Below are positions 3,985 to 52,020 of a stretch of 64,000 nucleotides of DNA, piece by piece. The translations under genes were made by a program, and so were the position numbers. The stretch is from Eledone cirrhosa (taxonomy: Eukaryota). Location of the stretch: NCBI GenBank assembly GCA_964016885.1, contig OZ024741.1, positions 82,150,001 through 82,214,000 on the forward strand. Direction: 5' to 3'. The first letter of the stretch is position 1, and the number at the start of each line of letters is the position of its first letter. Under the pieces are notes generated by a model, which searched no databases, was not told the origin of the DNA, and worked only from the letters and a program-made list of their open reading frames with translations.

Positions 3985-4022
<38 letters not shown>

Positions 4023-4032
4023 AACCAGTAAG

Positions 4033-4126
4033 ACCCCGACAGCTGAGCTCAAGCCGTTTCGACGGCTAATTCTGGACTAAATGAACATTTATCCTGGTAT
4101 TTAAATAGCCGATCTTCTCAAGGGGT
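4033..4126 (-). ncRNA. Type I hammerhead ribozyme (inverted pLTR copy)
   Basis: Reverse complement of 6213-6306. Confidence 0.75.
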
Positions 4127-4379
4127 AATTCCATATATGGTCAAAGTGATTGTCAAAAATCAGTAGTAATTCTGTGGTTGCAAATTAGTAGGGGAGATGG
4201 TGGCTAAACCTGCCAGTAGGAGAAAGAGGGGAGGGGGTGGAGTAGACCCAATCAAGCGTTGGTAGTGCCAGCTACAGCTGGGCATGAGGTCAAAGAAGAT
4301 ACAGGGGCGGGGGAGGGGGAGGAAGTCGGAACGGTAGGTAGAACAATGGGGGGTAAAAATAGGAAAGAAAAAATACTGT

Positions 4380-5114
4380 CCAGATCCCATTAGCGGAACC
4401 AGCAGGAGACACCGCCGCTCACGCAATGTAACATGGTTCAATCCTCCCCACAACGCAGAGGTGACTACTCCCATCGGGAAACTATTCTTTAGGCTCATTG
4501 AAAAACACTTCCCATTACAACACCGCTACCACAACATAATTAACAAAAATACCATCAAACTCTCTTACAGCACTACACCAAACTTCGCACAAAACATCGT
4601 CTCCTCTAACAACAAAAAACTCAACCCCGATGGCAGAAATAACCTAAATAGCAGTGGAGAACCGACCAGGAGGTGTAACTGCCCGGATAGATCTATTTGC
4701 CCACTCGACAATAGATGCAGAGACCGTAATGTGATCTACCAGTGCAACGTGAGGACGGATACCTCCAACAAAGCCTATATAGGACTTACCGCATGTGACT
4801 TCAAGACCCGGCTATACCAACATAGACATACCTTCCGAAACCCGGCCCGGCGTCACGCCACTACACTTTCGGGCCACATATGGGACCTCAAGGACAACAA
4901 CATCACCTATGATCTCACTTGGAGATTACTGTCCAGAGCCAATTCTTACACGGGAGGACGCCGTCCGTGCAATTTATGCTCGGAGGAAACTTTACAAATG
5001 CTGTTTTCGACGGACCAACTCCTAAACAAGAAAGATGAACTGGTTACTGCATGTAAACATAGATTGCGTAGGACTTACCTCGCCCTCAAACCCCATAATG
5101 ACCCGGGGGGGTAG
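4380..5114 (+). CDS. C-terminal part of PLE polyprotein (end of RT region, linker, GIY-YIG endonuclease); 5'-truncated but uninterrupted
   Basis: WFNPP, TIKLSYS, CNCPDRSIC (CxCx5C), VIYQC...AYIGLT...FKTRLYQH, CNLCSEE, LLNKKDEL...CKH. Confidence 0.88.
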   Translation, partial: PDPISGTSRRHRRSRNVTWFNPPHNAEVTTPIGKLFFRLIEKHFPLQHRYHNIINKNTIKLSYSTTPNFAQNIVSSNNKKLNPDGRNNLNSSGEPTRRCNCPDRSICPLDNRCRDRNVIYQCNVRTDTSNKAYIGLTACDFKTRLYQHRHTFRNPARRHATTLSGHIWDLKDNNITYDLTWRLLSRANSYTGGRRPCNLCSEETLQMLFSTDQLLNKKDELVTACKHRLRRTYLALKPHNDPGG

Positions 5115-6212
5115 ACTAGGGCTATAACACCCCAGTTGCCGATTTTGCAATGGGTAACCCCTGCTTGCCAAGGAAGACGTAAGATCTTCTTTGTATTCTT
5201 TTATCGCATCCTTTATTTCCTTCCCCCCTCTCTCCTTTGTCCTTCTACCCCAGCTCTTCTCCTTTGTCGGCGTCTTTTCTCGCCCACCCGAGGCTGCCCT
5301 TTGGCCCCATGTAGCCTTAGTACCCCCACTCCCCCCTCCCCTAGTCCTTGATAGATTTGGCGGACTCCGCCCTTTATAGCAGTTGGCTTAGACCCCGGAT
5401 ACTTGCCCCCCTTTTCCGACCGCTCCCACTATTCTCTGTGCCCTCTATATTTCTTAGTGGCACTTATGCCTTATTTTTTCGTTTCAGTATTTCTTGCTTC
5501 GCTTTTCTTCTGGGCGGGGTGGATTCTGAACTTATTTCTCCGTATTCTACCTTTATTTCGTACGAACTTTCATGTAGCTTGTTTTAGATCTTTTAGAGTT
5601 AGCATTAGTATATATTTTTCCCGGGACTCAGAATTATTATGTCGTACAAGTTCACTTTGCTGCACTGGGTCGTTGCTGGCCCGGGATGGAAACCTTTATT
5701 GTTTATTTCGTGGTAGTCTCTTTAGTATTTTGGCCCCTTTTGTTGACCAGTCACCGTATCATTTACGTACTTATACCTCTTAAAAGGGTCCTTGCCTAAT
5801 TCGTCCCACCTAGTTCTTTTACTTATTTCCTTATTTATTTATTTATTTATTTATTTACTTCTTTCTTTCTTTCTTTATTTTATTCTCGCCTAACAATAGC
5901 CTGACACCTAGGTCGTAGAATTTAATTTTTTCTTTACACTTATTTGCTTTTCTTCACTCTCAGTATTTTTTCTTTCCTATTTTTACCCCCCATTGTTCTA
6001 CCTACCGTTCCGACTTCCTCCCCCTCCCCCTCCCCTGTATCTTCTTTGACCTCATGCCCAGCTGTAGCTGGCACTACCAACGCTTGATTGGGTCTACTCC
6101 ACCCCCTCCCCTCTTTCTCCTACTGGCAGGTTTAGCCACCATCTCCCCTACTAATTTGCAACCACAGAATTACTACTGATTTTTGACAATCACTTTGACC
6201 ATATATGGAATT

Positions 6213-6306
6213 ACCCCTTGAGAAGATCGGCTATTTAAATACCAGGATAAATGTTCATTTAGTCCAGAATTAGCCGTCGAAACGGCTTGAGCTCAGCTGT
6301 CGGGGT
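6213..6306 (+). ncRNA. Type I hammerhead ribozyme, U3-A8 core variant
   Basis: Stem I acccc/ggggt; core TTGAGAA; stem II ga(t)cggcta/tagccgtc; GAAA; stem III acggct/agctgt; GUC triplet, predicted cleavage after 6301. Confidence 0.78.
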
Positions 6307-6397
6307 CTTACTGGTTCCTATTACCCACTCTACTACCTCAAGTATTGAGTACTTTGGTGCGTTATGGTCCACCTGGTTCCTTACCACATTTCCTTCG

Positions 6398-6457
<60 letters not shown>

Positions 6458-9584: not shown

Positions 9585-10478
9585 ATCTAAATGGCGAGCT
9601 GTGTTGTTCCAATTAAGTATAATGAAAAATAAGAAATTAGAAGTTAGGATTATCCATCATCAGTTGTCTACTAGGCGTCATAGGCATTTCTTCGCATTAA
9701 ATACAAGATACCTCGGCCTAGGGCGAAACAATAACTAAAGTAAGTTATTGGGATAAAAAGAGTTGGGTGGAGAAAGAGAAGGACATATAAACAGACACGA
9801 TGGTTGAGGCAACGCAAAGAGAGGAAAAAGGAAAGAATCAAGTCAATAATACATCATTTCAAACATAAGAATACGCGAATTTTGACGAGGAGAAAAAGAC
9901 TACGTCTTGACCGTCCGGGTGTGAGCAAGAAAGACCGCGTACAGAGTTGGACGATGGAGGAAGTGAGAGAGAGGGTGATTGGCAGAGAGTGAGTGAGGGA
10001 AAGTGCGCGGAAGAGGCAAGCCGAGAGAGGGGGGTGTAAAAGAGGGGGTGAGTAAAAGTAAGAGGGAGAAGGAGCGAGAGAAGGGAGAGAGAGAGAGAGA
10101 GGATAGCAGCAAGGGAAGAGAAAAAAAGACAGATCACAGCAGAGGGGGAAGAATATATGAATCAAAATGGTGAGCTGTGTGTTGCCATTAAGTATAATGA
10201 AAAATAAGAAATTAGAAGTTAGGATTATCCATCATCAGTTGTCTACTAGGCGTCATAGGCATTTCTTCGCATTTTTCCTCTCCTTACGTTGCCTCACCAT
10301 TCGTGTCTGTTTACATGTCCTTCTCTTTTTCCATCCACTTCTTTTTATCCCAAAAACTTACTTTAGTTATTGTTTTGCCCTAGGCCGAGCTATCTTGTCT
10401 TTAATGCGAAGAAATGCCTATGACACCTAGTAGAAAACTGATGATGGATAATCCTAACGTCTAATTTCTTATTTCATG
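9585..10478. mobile_element. Non-autonomous PLE-like element built from direct and inverted pLTR copies
   Basis: 9589-9698 repeats directly at 10165-10272; 9620-9770 is inverted at 10330-10475; CTGATGA at 10438; (TA)n flanks. Confidence 0.7.
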
Positions 10479-10503: not shown

Positions 10504-11990
10504 TATAAATTACACAATTATCAAAGTTATGTTCAAATCATTTTATTGCTGACAATCGTTTCTTCCAAACTTTCGTTTCGAATCATCGGAGCATTAGCAA
10601 TGTTTGTACATATAATTAACCTCCTATTCAACTGAACAATCATATAGTTACATATATATTAATGTTGGGAACAACAGTTTCGTATTTACAGGGTGTAATT
10701 GATGCGACATATATTATACGAGAATTTTACAATAATTCAAATTAAAGTTACTACTATAGCCAACTTATATTTATACAGTAATATATATATAATATGTAGA
10801 GACATTTAATGTTATATGTGATAATAAATTATATATACATTTATAATTAAATATATAAATTAATAGCATTGTATATAAGGGATTAACTTTTAACACAATA
10901 TTATGTATATTATTAACACAAGGGATTTAACTAATTGGACATGTAAACAGCTATACATTTTTCCATAACTTATATCTTGTCCAGTAATGGATAGATAACA
11001 ATCTAATGAGACCTTTAATTTATTATAGGAAAATAGACTGTATTTAAAATTAAATACAAATATATAATATTATGTAGAATTGTAACACAATATAATGTAT
11101 ATTAGAGCAAATAATTGGAATAATTGATACTTTCCTATATAATTTAATTTAATTTAATTAGCTCCCCTTACATTTGGATCTCATACTCACTTCCGGAAAT
11201 TAAACGGTTAGAATAACTCGCTGTAGAACAACTCTAATCAATGAATAAGAATACAATAAGACCAATTTACAATCCATTGCTGTAACTAACTAAAAACATT
11301 CAATATAAACATTAACTAAAATATAATTTAACATATGTAATGGAAAAGAAAACAATAAGTTTGATACTCGCAACACATACAAATTTGAACACTACAGAAA
11401 CTATCATCACATTACATCCACCGTAAATTTTAATACACTAACACATTTGCTTAATATGCTTATATTTTATGTGATACCTTTGCCATACAGTATTTATATA
11501 TGCCTAATACCTTTGCTTGTTTCCTTCTCATATATATGACTAACGCATGTGCACTTTCTACACGCTTGCATATGTACTGCTAGTGTCCTCATTCTTTCTC
11601 AATGCCTATTTAATTATTATACTATTCTCTTGTATTATCTGTCGGATGTAATCCACTTTGTGCTTTTAACTTTAATTTGAATTATTGTACAATACTCGTA
11701 TAATATATGTCGCATCCATTACATCCTGTAAATACGAAACTGTTGTTCACAACATCAATATATATGTATCTATATGATTGTTCAGTTGAATAGGAGGTTA
11801 ATTATATGTACAAACATTGCTAATGCTCCGATGATTCGAAACGAAAGTTTGGAAGAAACGATTGTCAGCAATAAAATGATTTGAACATAACTTTGATAAT
11901 TGTGTAATTTATATTCCTGCTCTGTAAAACACCTGATGTTCTTACATTGAGCTATTTCTCTTACTGGTAATAAGGTAGTAATAAATTACT
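10504..11990 (+). mobile_element. PLE-derived element with ~245 bp inverted pLTRs
   Basis: Inverted repeat 10504-10750/11667-11913 containing a hammerhead; the right copy probably extends into a tail. Confidence 0.8.
11824..11870 (+). ncRNA. Minimal type I hammerhead ribozyme (CCGATGA core variant); inverted copy at ~10545-10591
   Basis: tgct-CCGATGA-ttcgaaac(gaaa)gtttggaa-GAAAc(gatt)gTC-agca. Confidence 0.75.
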
Positions 11991-12068: not shown

Positions 12069-12268
12069 GGCGGTGGATTGGCAGTATCAGTAGAGGGTCG
12101 GACGCCATGCTTTGACGCATAGAGTTACGGCCCTTGCCATTCTGAGTTCAAATCCCGCCGAGGTTAACTTTGCCTTTCATCCTTACGGGGTCGATAAAAT
12201 AAAGTACCAGCAATGCACTGGGTAATTGCTGGCCTTGTGCCTAAAGTAGAAACAATTATTATTATTAT
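12069..12268 (+). mobile_element. SINE family A, full length
   Basis: ggcggtggattggcag head, B box gagttcaaatccc, shared core, (ATT)n tail. Confidence 0.9.
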
Positions 12269-12294
12269 ATATATTTATATATATTTATTTATCG

Positions 12295-12900
12295 CTGTTT
12301 TCAAAACCCACCTATCATCGCGTTTAAGTCCGCCTCTAATATCCACGACGTCCTGGTACATCGTTCCTTCTCCTAGGACTCCACCCGGCACTCATCTTTG
12401 TTCTCGCCCCCGTTGTAACGCCTGTCCCTTCATTTATAACCTCACCACTCACACAGGCACCAATGGTTCATTCTGTATCCACCACTCCTTCACCTGCACC
12501 TCCACCCACGTAGTCTATGCTCTCCGGTATTCCGTTTGCATGTCCTTATACATCGGACACACAGGACGCCGTTTGGCGGAACGTTATGCTGAACATTTGA
12601 GGGGCATACTACTACGCCACTCGTCATTTCCATTCCCATGTCACTCTTCCCTACACGTTTCAGTTATTGGTGTCTTTTTACATCATGGTTCACTCGCGCA
12701 GAGTGTCAATTTCCACCTTTTCCCCATTTTCCCCAGTCGATTCAACTCCCCTGCACAATTTCTTTAATCTTACACACATACGCTCCTGCTTAATTCTCTA
12801 CCCCTAGGCACCGTCACGAAAACCCCGCCCATTGTCACAGACGTGCGCGTACTTTCACCCCTCCCTCCTACTTTCCTATGGCTCTCTTATAGTCATAAAC
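12295..12900 (+). mobile_element. Neptune-type PLE GIY-YIG endonuclease fragment
   Basis: PGTHLCSRPRCNACPF...FTCTSTHVVYAL...LYIGHTGRRLAERYAEH. Confidence 0.8.
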
Positions 12901-14084: not shown

Positions 14085-14982
14085 CACCCAGATAAATCGG
14101 AAGATCCTATTTAATGTTCAAACAAGAAGAAAAAATTGACCAATTTACAGAAAAAGTTGTGCATGGATACTTGAGACGTATAACAGCGACCATAGAGGGG
14201 ATAAACCACTCAAAAAGCATGGCATGGAGTTCCGACAAGTTTATGACATCACGCCTTGAGGGATATCTCTATGCAATACAGGAACAAGAACTTCCTACCA
14301 AATATCTGCTGCACAAAAGGGGAGGGCCATCAGCTGACAATAAATGTAGGCTATGTAAAACAAAGATAGAAGATGTAAGCCACATTGTTGCCAGCTGCGA
14401 AAGAATGTCATCTCGCTACTACCTCCCCATGAGACACGATGGGATAGCTAGAACCATCTGGAATGCACTTCGGAAAACAAAATTAACAAATGAGGAGGAA
14501 TATATTGAGACAGATGGCACTAAGGAATACTGGTGGAATCTAAAAATAAAAACTGCCACCAAATTAAAGCACAACCGGCGTGATATTGTTGTTTGGGACC
14601 ACACATTGAAAACGTGTTCTGTTGTGGAGATCAGCTGCCCACTTGATGTAAACGTTGTCAGAAAAATACAGGAGAAGGAGGATATCTACGGACCATTGAT
14701 GAGGAGTTTGCAAATCCAGTATCTAAGATACACCTTTAGCTTCATACCCATCATTATTGGAGCTACAGGTTATATACCAACCCGTTTGGACTAAAGTATG
14801 ACTGAACTTGGATTTGCGGACAAAGAGCGCAGCTCCCTAATTCATAGTCTACAAATGGCTGCGATAGCTGGCACCTTCAACATTTGCAAAACATTCTTGC
14901 GATTCAGGGATGACAATCTCTTTTCTTTTACAACCTTGCCACCAGGAACGTGGCCGGTCAAAAACGTTTAAGAGAAAGAGAT

Positions 14983-19706: not shown

Positions 19707-19738
<32 letters not shown>

Positions 19739-19739
19739 A

Positions 19740-20569
19740 ATTGATGAGCAGAACAAACAAACATTAAACAATCCTTTAAATAAATTAAACAATAATTTAA
19801 ATATCTACCTGTTTATAATGCTATTACCGGCGGTTTCCATCCACAAAAGATTGGAAATTCCCTGAATTTCCAACGGAAAGTAGATTTCATCAGATAGCTA
19901 TTTCCTTTCCATAGGACATCTATCCCATGGTCCGCAAATATAATGCCAACTACCAGCTCGTATGAGTTATAGCCGTTAAAGTGACCCATACGTGACCTGA
20001 CCACTAGAGCAAGCGGGAATATTACAGACTTGTTGATGGCTTGGCTGCTAAAAAAATAGCGGTAAGCAACAACGAATTTTTTCTCTACATAGATCGGAGA
20101 ATATATAAAAATGAAGTAAATATCTCACTGAGCACTAAGTACACATTGAGATATATTTTTTTAGCAGCCCAGCCATCAACAAGTCTGTAATATTCCCGCT
20201 TGCTCTAGTGGCCAGGTCACGTATGGGTCACTTTAACGGCTATAACTCGTACGAGCTGGTAGTTGGCATTATATTTGCGGACAGATGTCCTATGGAAAGG
20301 ACATAGCTATCTGATGAAATCTACTTTCCGTTGTTAATTCTCTGAATTTCCAATCTTTTGTGGATGGAAACCGCCGGTAATAGCATTATGAACAGGTAGA
20401 TATTTAAATTATTTTTTAATTTATTTAAAGGATTGTTTAATGTTTGTTTGTTCTGCTCATCAATGTTTATAGTTCTGGTACCTCTAATTAGTACCATAGA
20501 ACAACAAATATATTATAGACACCCTATATATCTCAATGTGTACTTAGTACTCAGTGAGATATTTACTTC

Positions 20570-20637: not shown

Positions 20638-21278
20638 AACCTAGGAATTTTAAACTAGACATATGATCATTATTTTTCACACATTATTGATACGTGTCTC
20701 ATTCATGAATACTGATATTTACATTATAATGCCTGTTTTATACGAATTGATATTTTTTACATTGATGAAACATAGTGTTTTAAATCTGCCTCGTTTTTGT
20801 CTGGATATTTTTCTTTTCTCTCTATGTAACGGCTGTTTTCTCTCTTAACCACATATATCTCTCTCTACATTAATACTAGAGCTAAATAAATAAATAAATA
20901 AATAAATAAATATATCATTGATACGTCATTCCACTGGTGCCCAACTACCTAGTTTCTTTCTCTCTATCTCTATCTATATCTATCTCTCTATATTTTCTCT
21001 CTCTCTCTCTCCTCTCTTCTCTCTCTCTCTCTCTATCTATCTCCCTCTGTGTTTTTTTTCCTCTCTCTGTTTCTTTACATGAATCTCTTCTCTCTATCTA
21101 TTTCTCTATATCTATCTCTCTCTATTTAGTTGCATGCATTTCTTCTTTTTCTTCGTTTTTCTTTCTTTCTTTTTATAACTGTCCCTAATATTTTTTCACT
21201 ACCAAATCAACTTTTCAAATAGAAGTCGAAGTTGAAAGGTATGTCGAATCTATCTATTTATAAGACTGTTTATATTGT

Positions 21279-21342
21279 ATTTTGTCTGAAGAAGGCATAA
21301 CATATTTTTAATATGATATCCCTGAAATATATATAATGAAAT
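21279..21342 (+). ncRNA. Minimal type I hammerhead ribozyme in a solo pLTR-like repeat (~21190-21470)
   Basis: attttgt-CTGAAGA-agg...cct-GAAAt(atat)aTA-atgaaat; related truncated copy at ~33100-33127. Confidence 0.7.
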
Positions 21343-21473
21343 AAATATGGTTTTATAAATATAGTTTCCATTTATTTAATATCGTAAATATACTCCAAAT
21401 ACTTGTTGAGTGCTTTTATATCAGTTATAAATATTTACTCGTTGTTAACCCAACAATTTAAATAAAACTTTGC

Positions 21474-22611: not shown

Positions 22612-22753
22612 TATAACAAAGGAATTGTGGTAAGGAACCAGATGGACCATAACGCACCAGAGTACTCAATGCTTAGGGTAGTAGAATGGGAAATAGGAAA
22701 AAGTATGATCCCGAAACGGCTTGAGCTCTGCCGTCGGGGGTCATACTTTTTCC

Positions 22754-22758
<5 letters not shown>
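22612..22758. mobile_element. Mini fold-back remnant of the Naiad pLTR family seen at 6200-6400
   Basis: Inverted tail (gtggtaaggaaccag...ataacgcacca) joined to the 3' half of the hammerhead (gaaacggcttgagctctgccgtcggggg); (TA)n flanks. Confidence 0.8.
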
Positions 22759-29848: not shown

Positions 29849-31900
29849 ATAGGAAAAGAGTCAGGACCCGACGGCTGAGTTCCGCCCGTTTCGACAGCTA
29901 GACTCGAACTCGGGTCCTGAGACTTTCCCTACCCTTTCTAATACCCTAAGTATCGAGCAATCTGGTGCGTTATGGTCAACCTGGGTTCTTACCACACTTT
30001 CTTTGTGGAGGCTCGTAATAGAGAAACAAATATCTTCGTTCATATAATGTTTGTGTTGGGACAGATTCGAGAGAGAGAGAAAGATGAGCTGCGTGTGATC
30101 GACCCCAAGTCGTCGCGAGAAAGTAAGAATATTGGCGTCAGTATAGCTGGCCTGCAGAAGAGGGAGGAAGAAGGTGACAGTGGGAGGGAGAGGGGTAAAG
30201 ATAGGGAGCAGTGTGAGAGAATGGAGAGAAAGAAAGAATGAATGCATGGTGGACAAACATTATATGAACGAAAATATTTGTTTCTCGCAACGAGCCGCCT
30301 ATTCCCCGCAGTAATCTCATTACTTCGTCGAAACTGCAGGAGGTTCAGATCTGAAGAGCATAATTTAATATTTGTGTCCTGTTCACTTTCATACATACTT
30401 TTTCCTCCTTCCTATCTTCTCTTCCTTCCTTCGAGTCGAGTCAACTCACATCTAGCCGCTGTTCTCTGTCCTTCAAAGTAATATATTACCTATCTACCTA
30501 TCTACGCATCTAAACATGCAGACTTATCTGGTGATGGGGTACATGTAATTCTAGCCGCACGGAAAACATTAATGGAGTTCAGTGGTCATCTCTGGACAGG
30601 AGCCGATGGATAAGATAGTTTTGATATCACTATGGGATCATCCGACTCAGCGCAGGCGGCGGATCTTGTGGCTTATTTGTTAGTGGTATACTGCATGGGA
30701 GGATGCCAGAGATGGCCGGTGGTTTGTATCGTGACGATATGCTGCTCTTGGTTGAGGGTCATAGTAATTGTAAAATTAATAGGAAAGGAAAATCCATAGT
30801 ACAATCCTTCAATGATTATAGCCTTGGGTTGGAAATGGAGAATAGCTATAAAATCGTTGACTTCTTGGGCGTGGCATTGGACCTTGGCGCAGGGCTTTGC
30901 TGTCCTTTCCATAGAATTAATGAAAATCTAAATTGCGTGTGTTTTGACTCTAGTCGTCCTGGATCTGTTGGGAGCACTATTGTCAATAGTGTCCAACAAC
31001 GGATTTCACGCATCTCTGCTAATAAAAATATTTTTGATGATAAGGCTGAATATTATAATGAAGCGAATAAAATTAAATACAATGACAACAATAACATGGC
31101 AAATCACCCTAGGATAATAATAATAAACAATTTAACTTAAACTCTAAACCAAACAAAAGAACTAGAACTAGAAATATTATTTGGTACTCACCCCCATTCT
31201 CATTAAGTGTTAACACACCTTTAGCAAAGCTATTCTTTAAAGCACTAGACAAATGTTTTCCTAAAGCCCATAGATACCACTCAATGTTTAACAAACATAC
31301 TATAAAACTATCCTACTCTACTACTATGAATATAGCACAAAATATAAATAGAATTAATAATAGAAACTTAAATTTAAACCCTAACCAAAATAACCATAAT
31401 AGCAATAATAATATTTCTAGCAATATCCAGTATAATAGTACCGTTCCGAGCAACAACAACTCCGTAAAATGTAAAGGTAGAATCAAATCAAACTGCCCTT
31501 TACAAAATGCCTTTATAAATGCAGAGTTAAAACTAAAGATAATATATTTAACTATGTCGGTGCCTCTTCTAGAAAATTTAAAGATCGCTGGAATAACCAT
31601 AATCATTCTTTCAGAAGATCTGAAAAAATCTTCTACTTCTCTTTCACATCTTATATGGAACTTAAAAAGCAACAATATAGACTATTCAATATCTTCGAAA
31701 GCACCTGCGTACGAAATATGGCTTTATCAAAATTCTGTAAATTGTGTATCGAAGAAATATTTTATATAATTAACTGTCAAAACTCTATTAATCCCAGGAC
31801 AGAATTATTTTCTTCTTGTAGAAATCGCCAAAATTCTACATTCAGAACTATGTGTAATTTATAATATTCCTATAAATCATAAAAATGATCCTATCTCCTT
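29849..31900 (+). mobile_element. Decayed Naiad-type PLE: rearranged pLTR, RT and GIY-YIG relics
   Basis: FDITMGSSDSAQ, GLYRDD, VDFLGV, WYSPP, TIKLSYS, CPLQN, CKLCIEE, NPRTELFSSC; pLTR fragments at 29849-30005; frameshifted. Confidence 0.85.
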
Positions 31901-51940: not shown

Positions 51941-51960
51941 TTATATATATATATATATTT

Positions 51961-52014
51961 CAGATCTAGCTGTCAAATCGGTTGGAGCTCAGCCGTCGGG
52001 GTCCTGACTGTTTT

Positions 52015-52020
<6 letters not shown>
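51961..52020 (+). mobile_element. 60 bp remnant of the Naiad pLTR end
   Basis: ggagctcagccgtcggggtcctgactgttttccta between (TA)n tracts. Confidence 0.7.

Follow-up and report, generated by a model that had tools for sequence, protein, structure and literature searches.

The hammerhead motif at positions 6213-6306 of a 64,000-nucleotide stretch of Eledone cirrhosa DNA (the whole stretch analysed here, called the window) lies in a young Penelope-like element (PLE) which its protein motifs assign to the Hydra clade. We consider it quite probable that in the living animal this type I hammerhead cleaves the RNA of the element after C6301, presumably at a slow rate and in only a fraction of the transcripts, and cutting is likely also in older subfamilies with a mismatched core pair. 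The U3-A8 pair of the window copy appears, from comparison of the subfamilies, to be a reversion from a C3.A8 mismatch and no new compensatory invention. The role of PLE hammerheads is stated to be unclear (PMC8557442), and in the one in vitro study insertion did not depend on them and no cut ends were seen in vivo (PMC11167929). DNA copies of the family described here preserve a record, which can be counted, of RNA that ended at the predicted site, tailed junctions included, and such records suggest that reverse transcription of cleaved RNA likely takes place in the germ line. The features of the insertion are as follows.

4018-6400, unstranded: whole insertion, a 5'-truncated Hydra-clade PLE with an inverted arm, in (TA)n (sequence, self-comparison)
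6399-6454, unstranded: right flank of the (TA)n target; left flank at about 3989-4019
4018-4378, minus: inverted arm, a copy of 5961-6321 that ends at the first fixed end (6321)
4033-4126, minus: second hammerhead copy, within the inverted arm
4379-5114, plus: 3' third of the ORF, with the end of the RT thumb, CxCX5C linker and C-terminal GIY-YIG endonuclease
5115-6400, plus: 3' UTR / pseudo-LTR
6322-6400, plus: 79-nt tail between the fixed ends 6321 and 6400
6213-6217 (ACCCC) with 6302-6306 (GGGGU), plus: stem I (read from sequence)
6207-6212 and 6213-6217, plus: extension and 5' strand of stem I (folding, alignment of relatives)
6218-6224, plus: catalytic core UUGAGAA, that is U3 U4 G5 A6 G7 A8 A9 (sequence, family counts)
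6225-6233 with 6271-6278, plus: stem II, with a 37-nt insert at 6234-6270 (sequence, covariation)
6257-6267, plus: conserved 5' boundary of short copies, peak at A6261/G6262 in TTAGTC
6279-6282, plus: GAAA of the core, followed by stem III through 6300 (sequence, fold, relatives)
up to U6300, plus: stem III, ACGGCU with AGCUGU, 5-6 bp (sequence, fold)
6289-6294, plus: palindromic stem III loop GAGCUC (sequence, fold, relatives)
6301/6302, plus: predicted cleavage site, C17 / G1.1 (truncation peak, untemplated inserts in genomic copies)
6302-6318, plus: 3' strand of stem I, 6-nt bulge and extension (folding)

The earlier note had recognized a hammerhead here with its stems, GAAA and core UUGAGAA, and both the sequence and the minimum-energy fold bear this out. 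Three helices surround the core with stem I open, which is the type I layout. The core positions U4 G5 A6, A9, G12 A13 A14, A15.1-U16.1 and H17 are all present in the window copy, together with a Watson-Crick 3-8 pair (U3-A8) and G10.1-C11.1 in stem II. Stem I is predicted to resume beyond the 6-nt bulge (6207-6212 with 6313-6318), and TGAGCTCA occupies 6288-6295 in the stem III loop region. The minimum-energy monomer fold of the motif is the hammerhead fold, and a rival hairpin at 6272-6287 has a pairing probability of 0.24 versus 0.76 for stems II and III. The fold energy is no better than that of shuffled sequence (z -0.75 for 6213-6306), and an Rfam search gave no hammerhead match at E 1 or at E 10; a descriptor of the core, any Watson-Crick 3-8 pair and three stems had no hit in 1000 dinucleotide shuffles of 5115-6321. 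The copy on the minus strand at 4033-4126 is identical. An insert in stem II had also been noted and stands at 37 nt; the hairpin that the insert was said to form does not, being weak (-1.9 kcal/mol), losing one pair in the commoner allele T6253 and not conserved as drawn.

The inverted arm differs from 5961-6321 at one position in 361 nt. The window copy is without the RT core, and whole copies elsewhere in the same genome form tandem arrays with a period of 3531 bp and have a 717-aa ORF with RT first and GIY-YIG last, domains named from their motifs; a Pfam search of this ORF matched no family. Its motifs are RWR, SDKT, CNCPDRSIC (the CxCX5C linker), CNLC (CxxC) and CKH (CxH). By eye, no CCHH motif was noticed in the endonuclease, and the ORF resembles the start of Hydra-1_Obim. 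The marks of the Hydra clade are RWK, DKT, the CxCX5C linker, CxxC, CxH and GIY-YIG at the C-terminus (Craig et al. 2021, PMC8557442), and Hydra PLEs share with the window element all of these except that it has RWR, as well as the (TA)n target, into which copies at other loci have also inserted. Their units are mostly below 3 kb, compared with 3531 bp here. Naiads share the (TA)n target, an inverted 5'-truncated arm and a tail, but are described as having an N-terminal GIY-YIG joined to RT by CxC, DKA and no canonical hammerhead (PMC8557442), none of which is true of the window element. The Naiad label that the element had been given is therefore wrong: its endonuclease is C-terminal and its protein carries the Hydra motifs. 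That the hammerhead sits in a PLE terminal repeat was correctly seen. By analogy with the anole PLE (PMC11167929), the fixed ends 6321 and 6400 are likely two reverse-transcription start sites. The word TGGTTCCT at 6312-6319, just before the first fixed end, recurs at 6375-6382 in the tail, and the frame of the ORF is open for 67 codons 5' of the first ATG, from inside hammerhead stem III (locus L031, 4256-4456).

U3-A8 is a state of the family and not a mutation of this copy. Among copies of the youngest subfamily we counted 2,088 matches with U3-A8 and none with C3-G8; 25 single changes comprise 16 with another base at position 3 (all with A8) and nine with another base at position 8. A genome-wide comparison of copies had been suggested as a check of whether the pair is fixed, and it is fixed in the youngest subfamily; it is likewise fixed in the next youngest, these two being the largest by whole motifs. 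The remark that a CUGANGA search would overlook this hammerhead also holds for a core of UUGAGAA, and CUGANGA or Watson-Crick-only descriptors undercount hammerheads. The U3-A8 core alone is already published. U3-A8 covariation in natural hammerheads was recorded in 2011 and stated to be active in vitro (Perreault et al., PMC3088659), in cases that, in that account, are not tied to a retrotransposon lineage and have no mismatch intermediate, and about 1,300 U3-A8 motifs are known from Schistosoma PLEs (Cervera and De la Pena 2014, PMC4209133).

Hammerheads of Hydra PLEs resemble that of the window in being type I motifs in the pLTR with G10.1-C11.1 and a stem III of 3-4 bp or longer (PMC8557442). 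In contrast to U3-A8 and a 37-nt insert, the Hydra rows of File S2 of that paper have a CUGANGA core in 26/26 and a loop 2 of 3-10 nt, and neither subfamily history nor scars are reported there. Among metagenome relatives (best 52 of 77 loci), 21 have a hammerhead, always with a CUGANGA core and C3-G8, and none was found in 31. The closest likeness in the core is with Cercyon of Schistosoma mansoni, which also has U3-A8 in a PLE terminal repeat, a long stem II and a palindromic stem III region, and which the canonical descriptor misses (PMC4209133). Cercyon is described there as being without a stable stem III and is thought to depend on dimers, whereas the window motif has 5-6 bp in stem III and an extended stem I and does not fit the dimer-dependent minimal PLE hammerhead, in which stem III is absent or of 1-2 bp. 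Unlike Cercyon in that account, the lineage of the window element has a documented C.A state.

In a genomic run, C occupied position 6218 in one quarter of the depth, which pointed to older subfamilies with a C3.A8 mismatch. These account for about 1,500 whole motifs. The first has 955 matches, the best 100 all C.A; the second has 582, and its best 100 comprise 87 C.A, 10 U-A, two C-G and one G.A. An intermediate U3-A8 subfamily has about 690 copies (93/100 in the best 100 of 739 matches), and 11 scattered copies carry C3-G8. In the nearest sisters, 13/13 rows show U3, and distant sisters (best 100 of 414) divide into 85 U-A, eight U.G, three C-G and four others, with U.G exceeding C-G by 10 to 5 in their G8 group. 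A tree was built from the end of the ORF alone (43 rows, with three further Hydra-like families as outgroup), excluding two rows that were unrelated or gapped; L280, L289 and L312 are distant sisters in it. It forms a ladder from a U.G/C-G group through U-A, U-A, C.A (old), C.A (middle) and U-A to U-A, with within-group distance declining along it (0.205, 0.088, 0.067, 0.043, 0.000), its deep part consisting of six rows, none C-G, and long outgroup branches. An AU test rejected a single C.A clade (p-AU 9e-9). From the ladder and this test we infer that U3 was lost, the C3.A8 mismatch was amplified, and U3 was regained once. A direct path from C-G to C.A to U-A was abandoned because the sister families are U3-A8. 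A tree from the short motif region alone was unreliable, and ORF-based trees were used instead. The ladder amounts to a natural allelic series of one ribozyme (C-G, U.G, U-A, C.A, U-A). With C-G, U.G, U-A and C.A all occurring as family states, positions 3 and 8 seem to require only a pyrimidine-purine pair. The return to U3-A8 was perhaps mildly favoured. We found no paper on a C.A core in PLEs, nor one on a mismatch interval with reversion, in the literature searched, a search with subscription journals and bioRxiv supplements outside its coverage.

The terminal part of the element has diverged slowly. The segment 6181-6321 diverges like the ORF and at one third of the rate of the remaining UTR (M vs Y 0.085, 0.063 and 0.268), and between subfamilies it is conserved far better than 5115-6180. 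GAAA is kept in 37/43 relatives and UC in 38/43, across families 27% apart in the ORF; these relatives were picked by a pattern that fixes U4-A6 and A9, so that those positions are not independent conservation. The loop GAGCUC is retained in 32/43 and TTAGT within the stem II insert in 37/43. Two pairs of the stem II arm covary among the 43 relatives, 6229-6275 (G-C 19, A-U 21) and 6235-6269 (A-U 17, U-A 15), the counts being of cells rather than independent events and each pair probably reflecting one or two events. The double change at 6229-6275 agrees with the hammerhead fold and not with the competing hairpin. Stems I and III have no double changes of any weight in the same rows. An RNAalifold consensus of the relatives was weak and not a hammerhead (-2.66 kcal/mol), and the named hammerhead structure was counted pair by pair in its place.

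Scars in genomic copies coincide with the predicted cut. We listed copies that have an intact tail and lose the match just upstream, and counted their starts over 6298-6305 by eye. With the young tail, 30/70 starts fall at G6302 (p 3e-10 versus a flat distribution; best 100 of 404 matches, 30 set aside because they are whole copies with indels). The middle tail, which is common to C.A and U-A copies, gives 19/57 (p 4e-5; best 100 of 681, 43 dropped), six of these 19 being ambiguous by microhomology, and the old C.A tail gives 14/48 (p 2e-3; best 100 of 116, 52 dropped). The junctions were verified by fetching 14 old and 20 young loci, of which one pair is a duplicate. Where starts are joined directly to (TA)n, and G microhomology thus cannot act, 16/34 are at 6302. 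In three young copies the sequence joined to G6302 is a fragment from the start of the ORF, as expected of a template jump. A truncation search for the tail of the distant sister gave 444 matches and was too noisy to be counted.

Between C6301 and G6302, an insert search returned 15 matches; 13 are A/T-rich runs of 5-23 nt that are untemplated and leave every original base in place, representing 12 independent insertions, while the one control site used, 7 nt upstream, gave five matches, all of 2-4 nt and none untemplated and A/T-rich. Eleven of the 12 run on into a whole hammerhead, nine with U3-A8 and two with C3.A8. The simplest reading is that a tail was added to an RNA with its end at C17 and that this RNA was then joined to a start at G1.1. 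The cleavage after C6301 that the earlier note had predicted gains indirect genomic support from the truncation peak and the untemplated inserts; against it, the GGGG run at the site favours microhomology joins. Many whole copies have one G extra or missing in this run, which could reflect slippage or imprecise rejoining. We found no paper on tailed junctions in PLEs within the same coverage of the literature, and one RNA run (a small share, as contigs) yielded a single piece, outside the motif.

Restriction of the scars to U-A subfamilies was considered and failed. Starts at 6302 per 100 intact tails are 1.97, 1.85 and 1.53 for the young, middle and old tails (Fisher p 0.18, young vs old), and tailed junctions number nine in about 2,780 U-A motifs versus two in 955 C.A motifs (p 0.74). 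Since the C.A lineages bear the same scars, a Watson-Crick 3-8 pair may be dispensable here, and the strict need for such a pair that had been assumed is not upheld. Equal rates across core states indicate either that the C.A core still cuts or that part of the signal is otherwise caused. Single mutants at positions 3 and 8 (G8C and C3G) cripple catalysis in vitro (PMC11167929), and the equality is unexpected if C.A cripples it in the same way.

A paused reverse transcriptase would be expected to stop at a helix edge, at 6306 or 6300 and not at 6302. This matters for an alternative in which the region is kept as a promoter and a protein-binding or reverse-transcription start signal, the ribozyme is near-inactive, bases 3 and 8 are free to drift, and scars arise where reverse transcriptase pauses at the three-way junction and ends are joined by G microhomology. 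That C3.A8 masters were amplified in three subfamilies (955 and 582 matches) whose scars match those of U-A ones in frequency is what such an account would lead one to expect, and it sits well with the lack of the core in at least 80% of end copies (14,587 tails vs no more than about 2,800 whole motifs) and with anole catalytic mutants that inserted normally in vitro (PMC11167929). It does not readily accommodate untemplated tails lying exactly between C17 and G1.1, with no base lost and none at the control site, or the whole hammerhead into which all 11 long tailed cases run, and the retention of GAAA and UC across distant families also speaks against it. We regard this alternative as clearly unlikely.

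The earlier note's own proposal was of selection for U3-A8 as a compensatory replacement of C3-G8 needed for function, in a ribozyme that may work as a dimer by way of its stem III palindrome; this now looks highly improbable. The immediate ancestors on the ORF-end tree are C.A and U-A, not C-G, and the C.A ones were widely amplified and carry scars, which tells against a selected direct swap even though U3-A8 is fixed in the two youngest and largest subfamilies, U3 was regained once, and the later changes A6226 and U6298 increase the fraction predicted to adopt the active fold (0.75 for the window copy). The predicted dimer is favourable (-62.3 vs 2 x -22.9 kcal/mol, a gain of 16.5 kcal/mol) and its loop is widely retained, yet such a dimer arises from any palindromic loop, and minimal PLE hammerheads need a partner where this one has 5-6 pairs in stem III and a monomer fold at the energy minimum. 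A dimer via GAGCUC could possibly occur in tandems; predicted folding does not need it.

Short copies have a 5' boundary of their own. In 40 short-copy regions, chosen among the best 100 tail matches, 54/73 arms begin at 6257-6267 with a peak at A6261/G6262, and rows of the sister family begin at the same A by eye. There is no consistent extra G, as a cap signature, at these starts. The surrounding TTAGT presumably resembles an initiator. Penelope transcription begins in the pLTR (PMC2377424). Taking these two points together, we read the A6261 boundary, inside the stem II insert, as a likely transcription start, deduced here from DNA boundaries; a start site inside a ribozyme was not found in the literature searched. 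For this boundary taken alone, a block to reverse transcription by protein bound to the long stem II arm, with no transcription start, is doubtful but carries some weight. The scatter of starts over 6257-6267 and the missing cap G would suit such a block, but the sister family keeps the boundary at the A of TTAGT despite a different insert sequence and pairing, the local hairpin is weak, and Penelope offers the precedent of starts in the pLTR.

In the mechanism we favour, transcription would begin at about A6261 and reverse transcription downstream of the cut, at 6321 or 6400. Most events would extend to 6261, the 5' end of the RNA, yielding short fold-back copies; some would reach the cut end at G6302 and stop, and others may pass from G6302 by jump or ligation onto the 3' end of the cleaved RNA (C6301), which may at times be A/U-tailed. 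Since both fixed ends lie downstream of the cut, whole copies would need uncut read-through RNA or a jump or ligation, and the tailed junctions suggest that such a route across the cut exists. The element could tolerate a ribozyme that cuts slowly, in keeping with the long duration of the C.A interval. In the anole PLE the hammerhead is protein-assisted and reverse transcription begins internally, at two sites by which the tail is delimited (Frangieh et al. 2024, PMC11167929). Poseidon PAc of Anolis has, like the window element, two fixed ends, a tail 3' of the hammerhead and an AT-rich target; RNA ends at the cut are described there as not found and uncut RNA as the main template in vitro, whereas about 2% of end copies in the window family start at the cut, some with tailed junctions.

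A joint reading, offered tentatively as a possibility somewhat short of even, combines a cut-and-rejoin cycle in the copies, an active C3.A8 ribozyme and a promoter within the ribozyme. The hammerhead would cut unit-length RNA, and reverse transcription would start 20 or 99 nt inside its 5' end, run off at G6302 and rejoin C6301, giving more-than-unit copies and the 3531-bp tandems. C3.A8 would work, probably with the help of protein, a pyrimidine-purine pair and not a Watson-Crick one being the real rule. With the promoter inside the ribozyme, fresh transcripts could not cut their 5' end in cis.

Several other elements were seen in passing. An unrelated second hammerhead at window positions 21278-21343 (plus strand) has a canonical C3-G8 core and an 8-bp stem I, and its family is also present in L113 and L114. 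At 22614-22756, 29851-30006 and 51953-52019 lie short end copies from older subfamilies, or from sister families, of the element described here. L140:189-225 is another small U3-A8 hammerhead, with a look-alike in L129 that has C3-G8, and L116, L118 and L124 belong to a separate Hydra-like family whose hammerhead has C3-G8 and a stem II arm of roughly 60 nt. Other inverted-arm pairs of 190-250 nt occur at 9627-10474, 10504-11913 and 19733-20471 of the window and are possibly further PLE fold-backs or DNA transposons. By eye, the remnants at 12198-12767 and 14096-14794 resemble a GIY-YIG endonuclease from a different PLE clade and the C-terminal end of a non-LTR retrotransposon.
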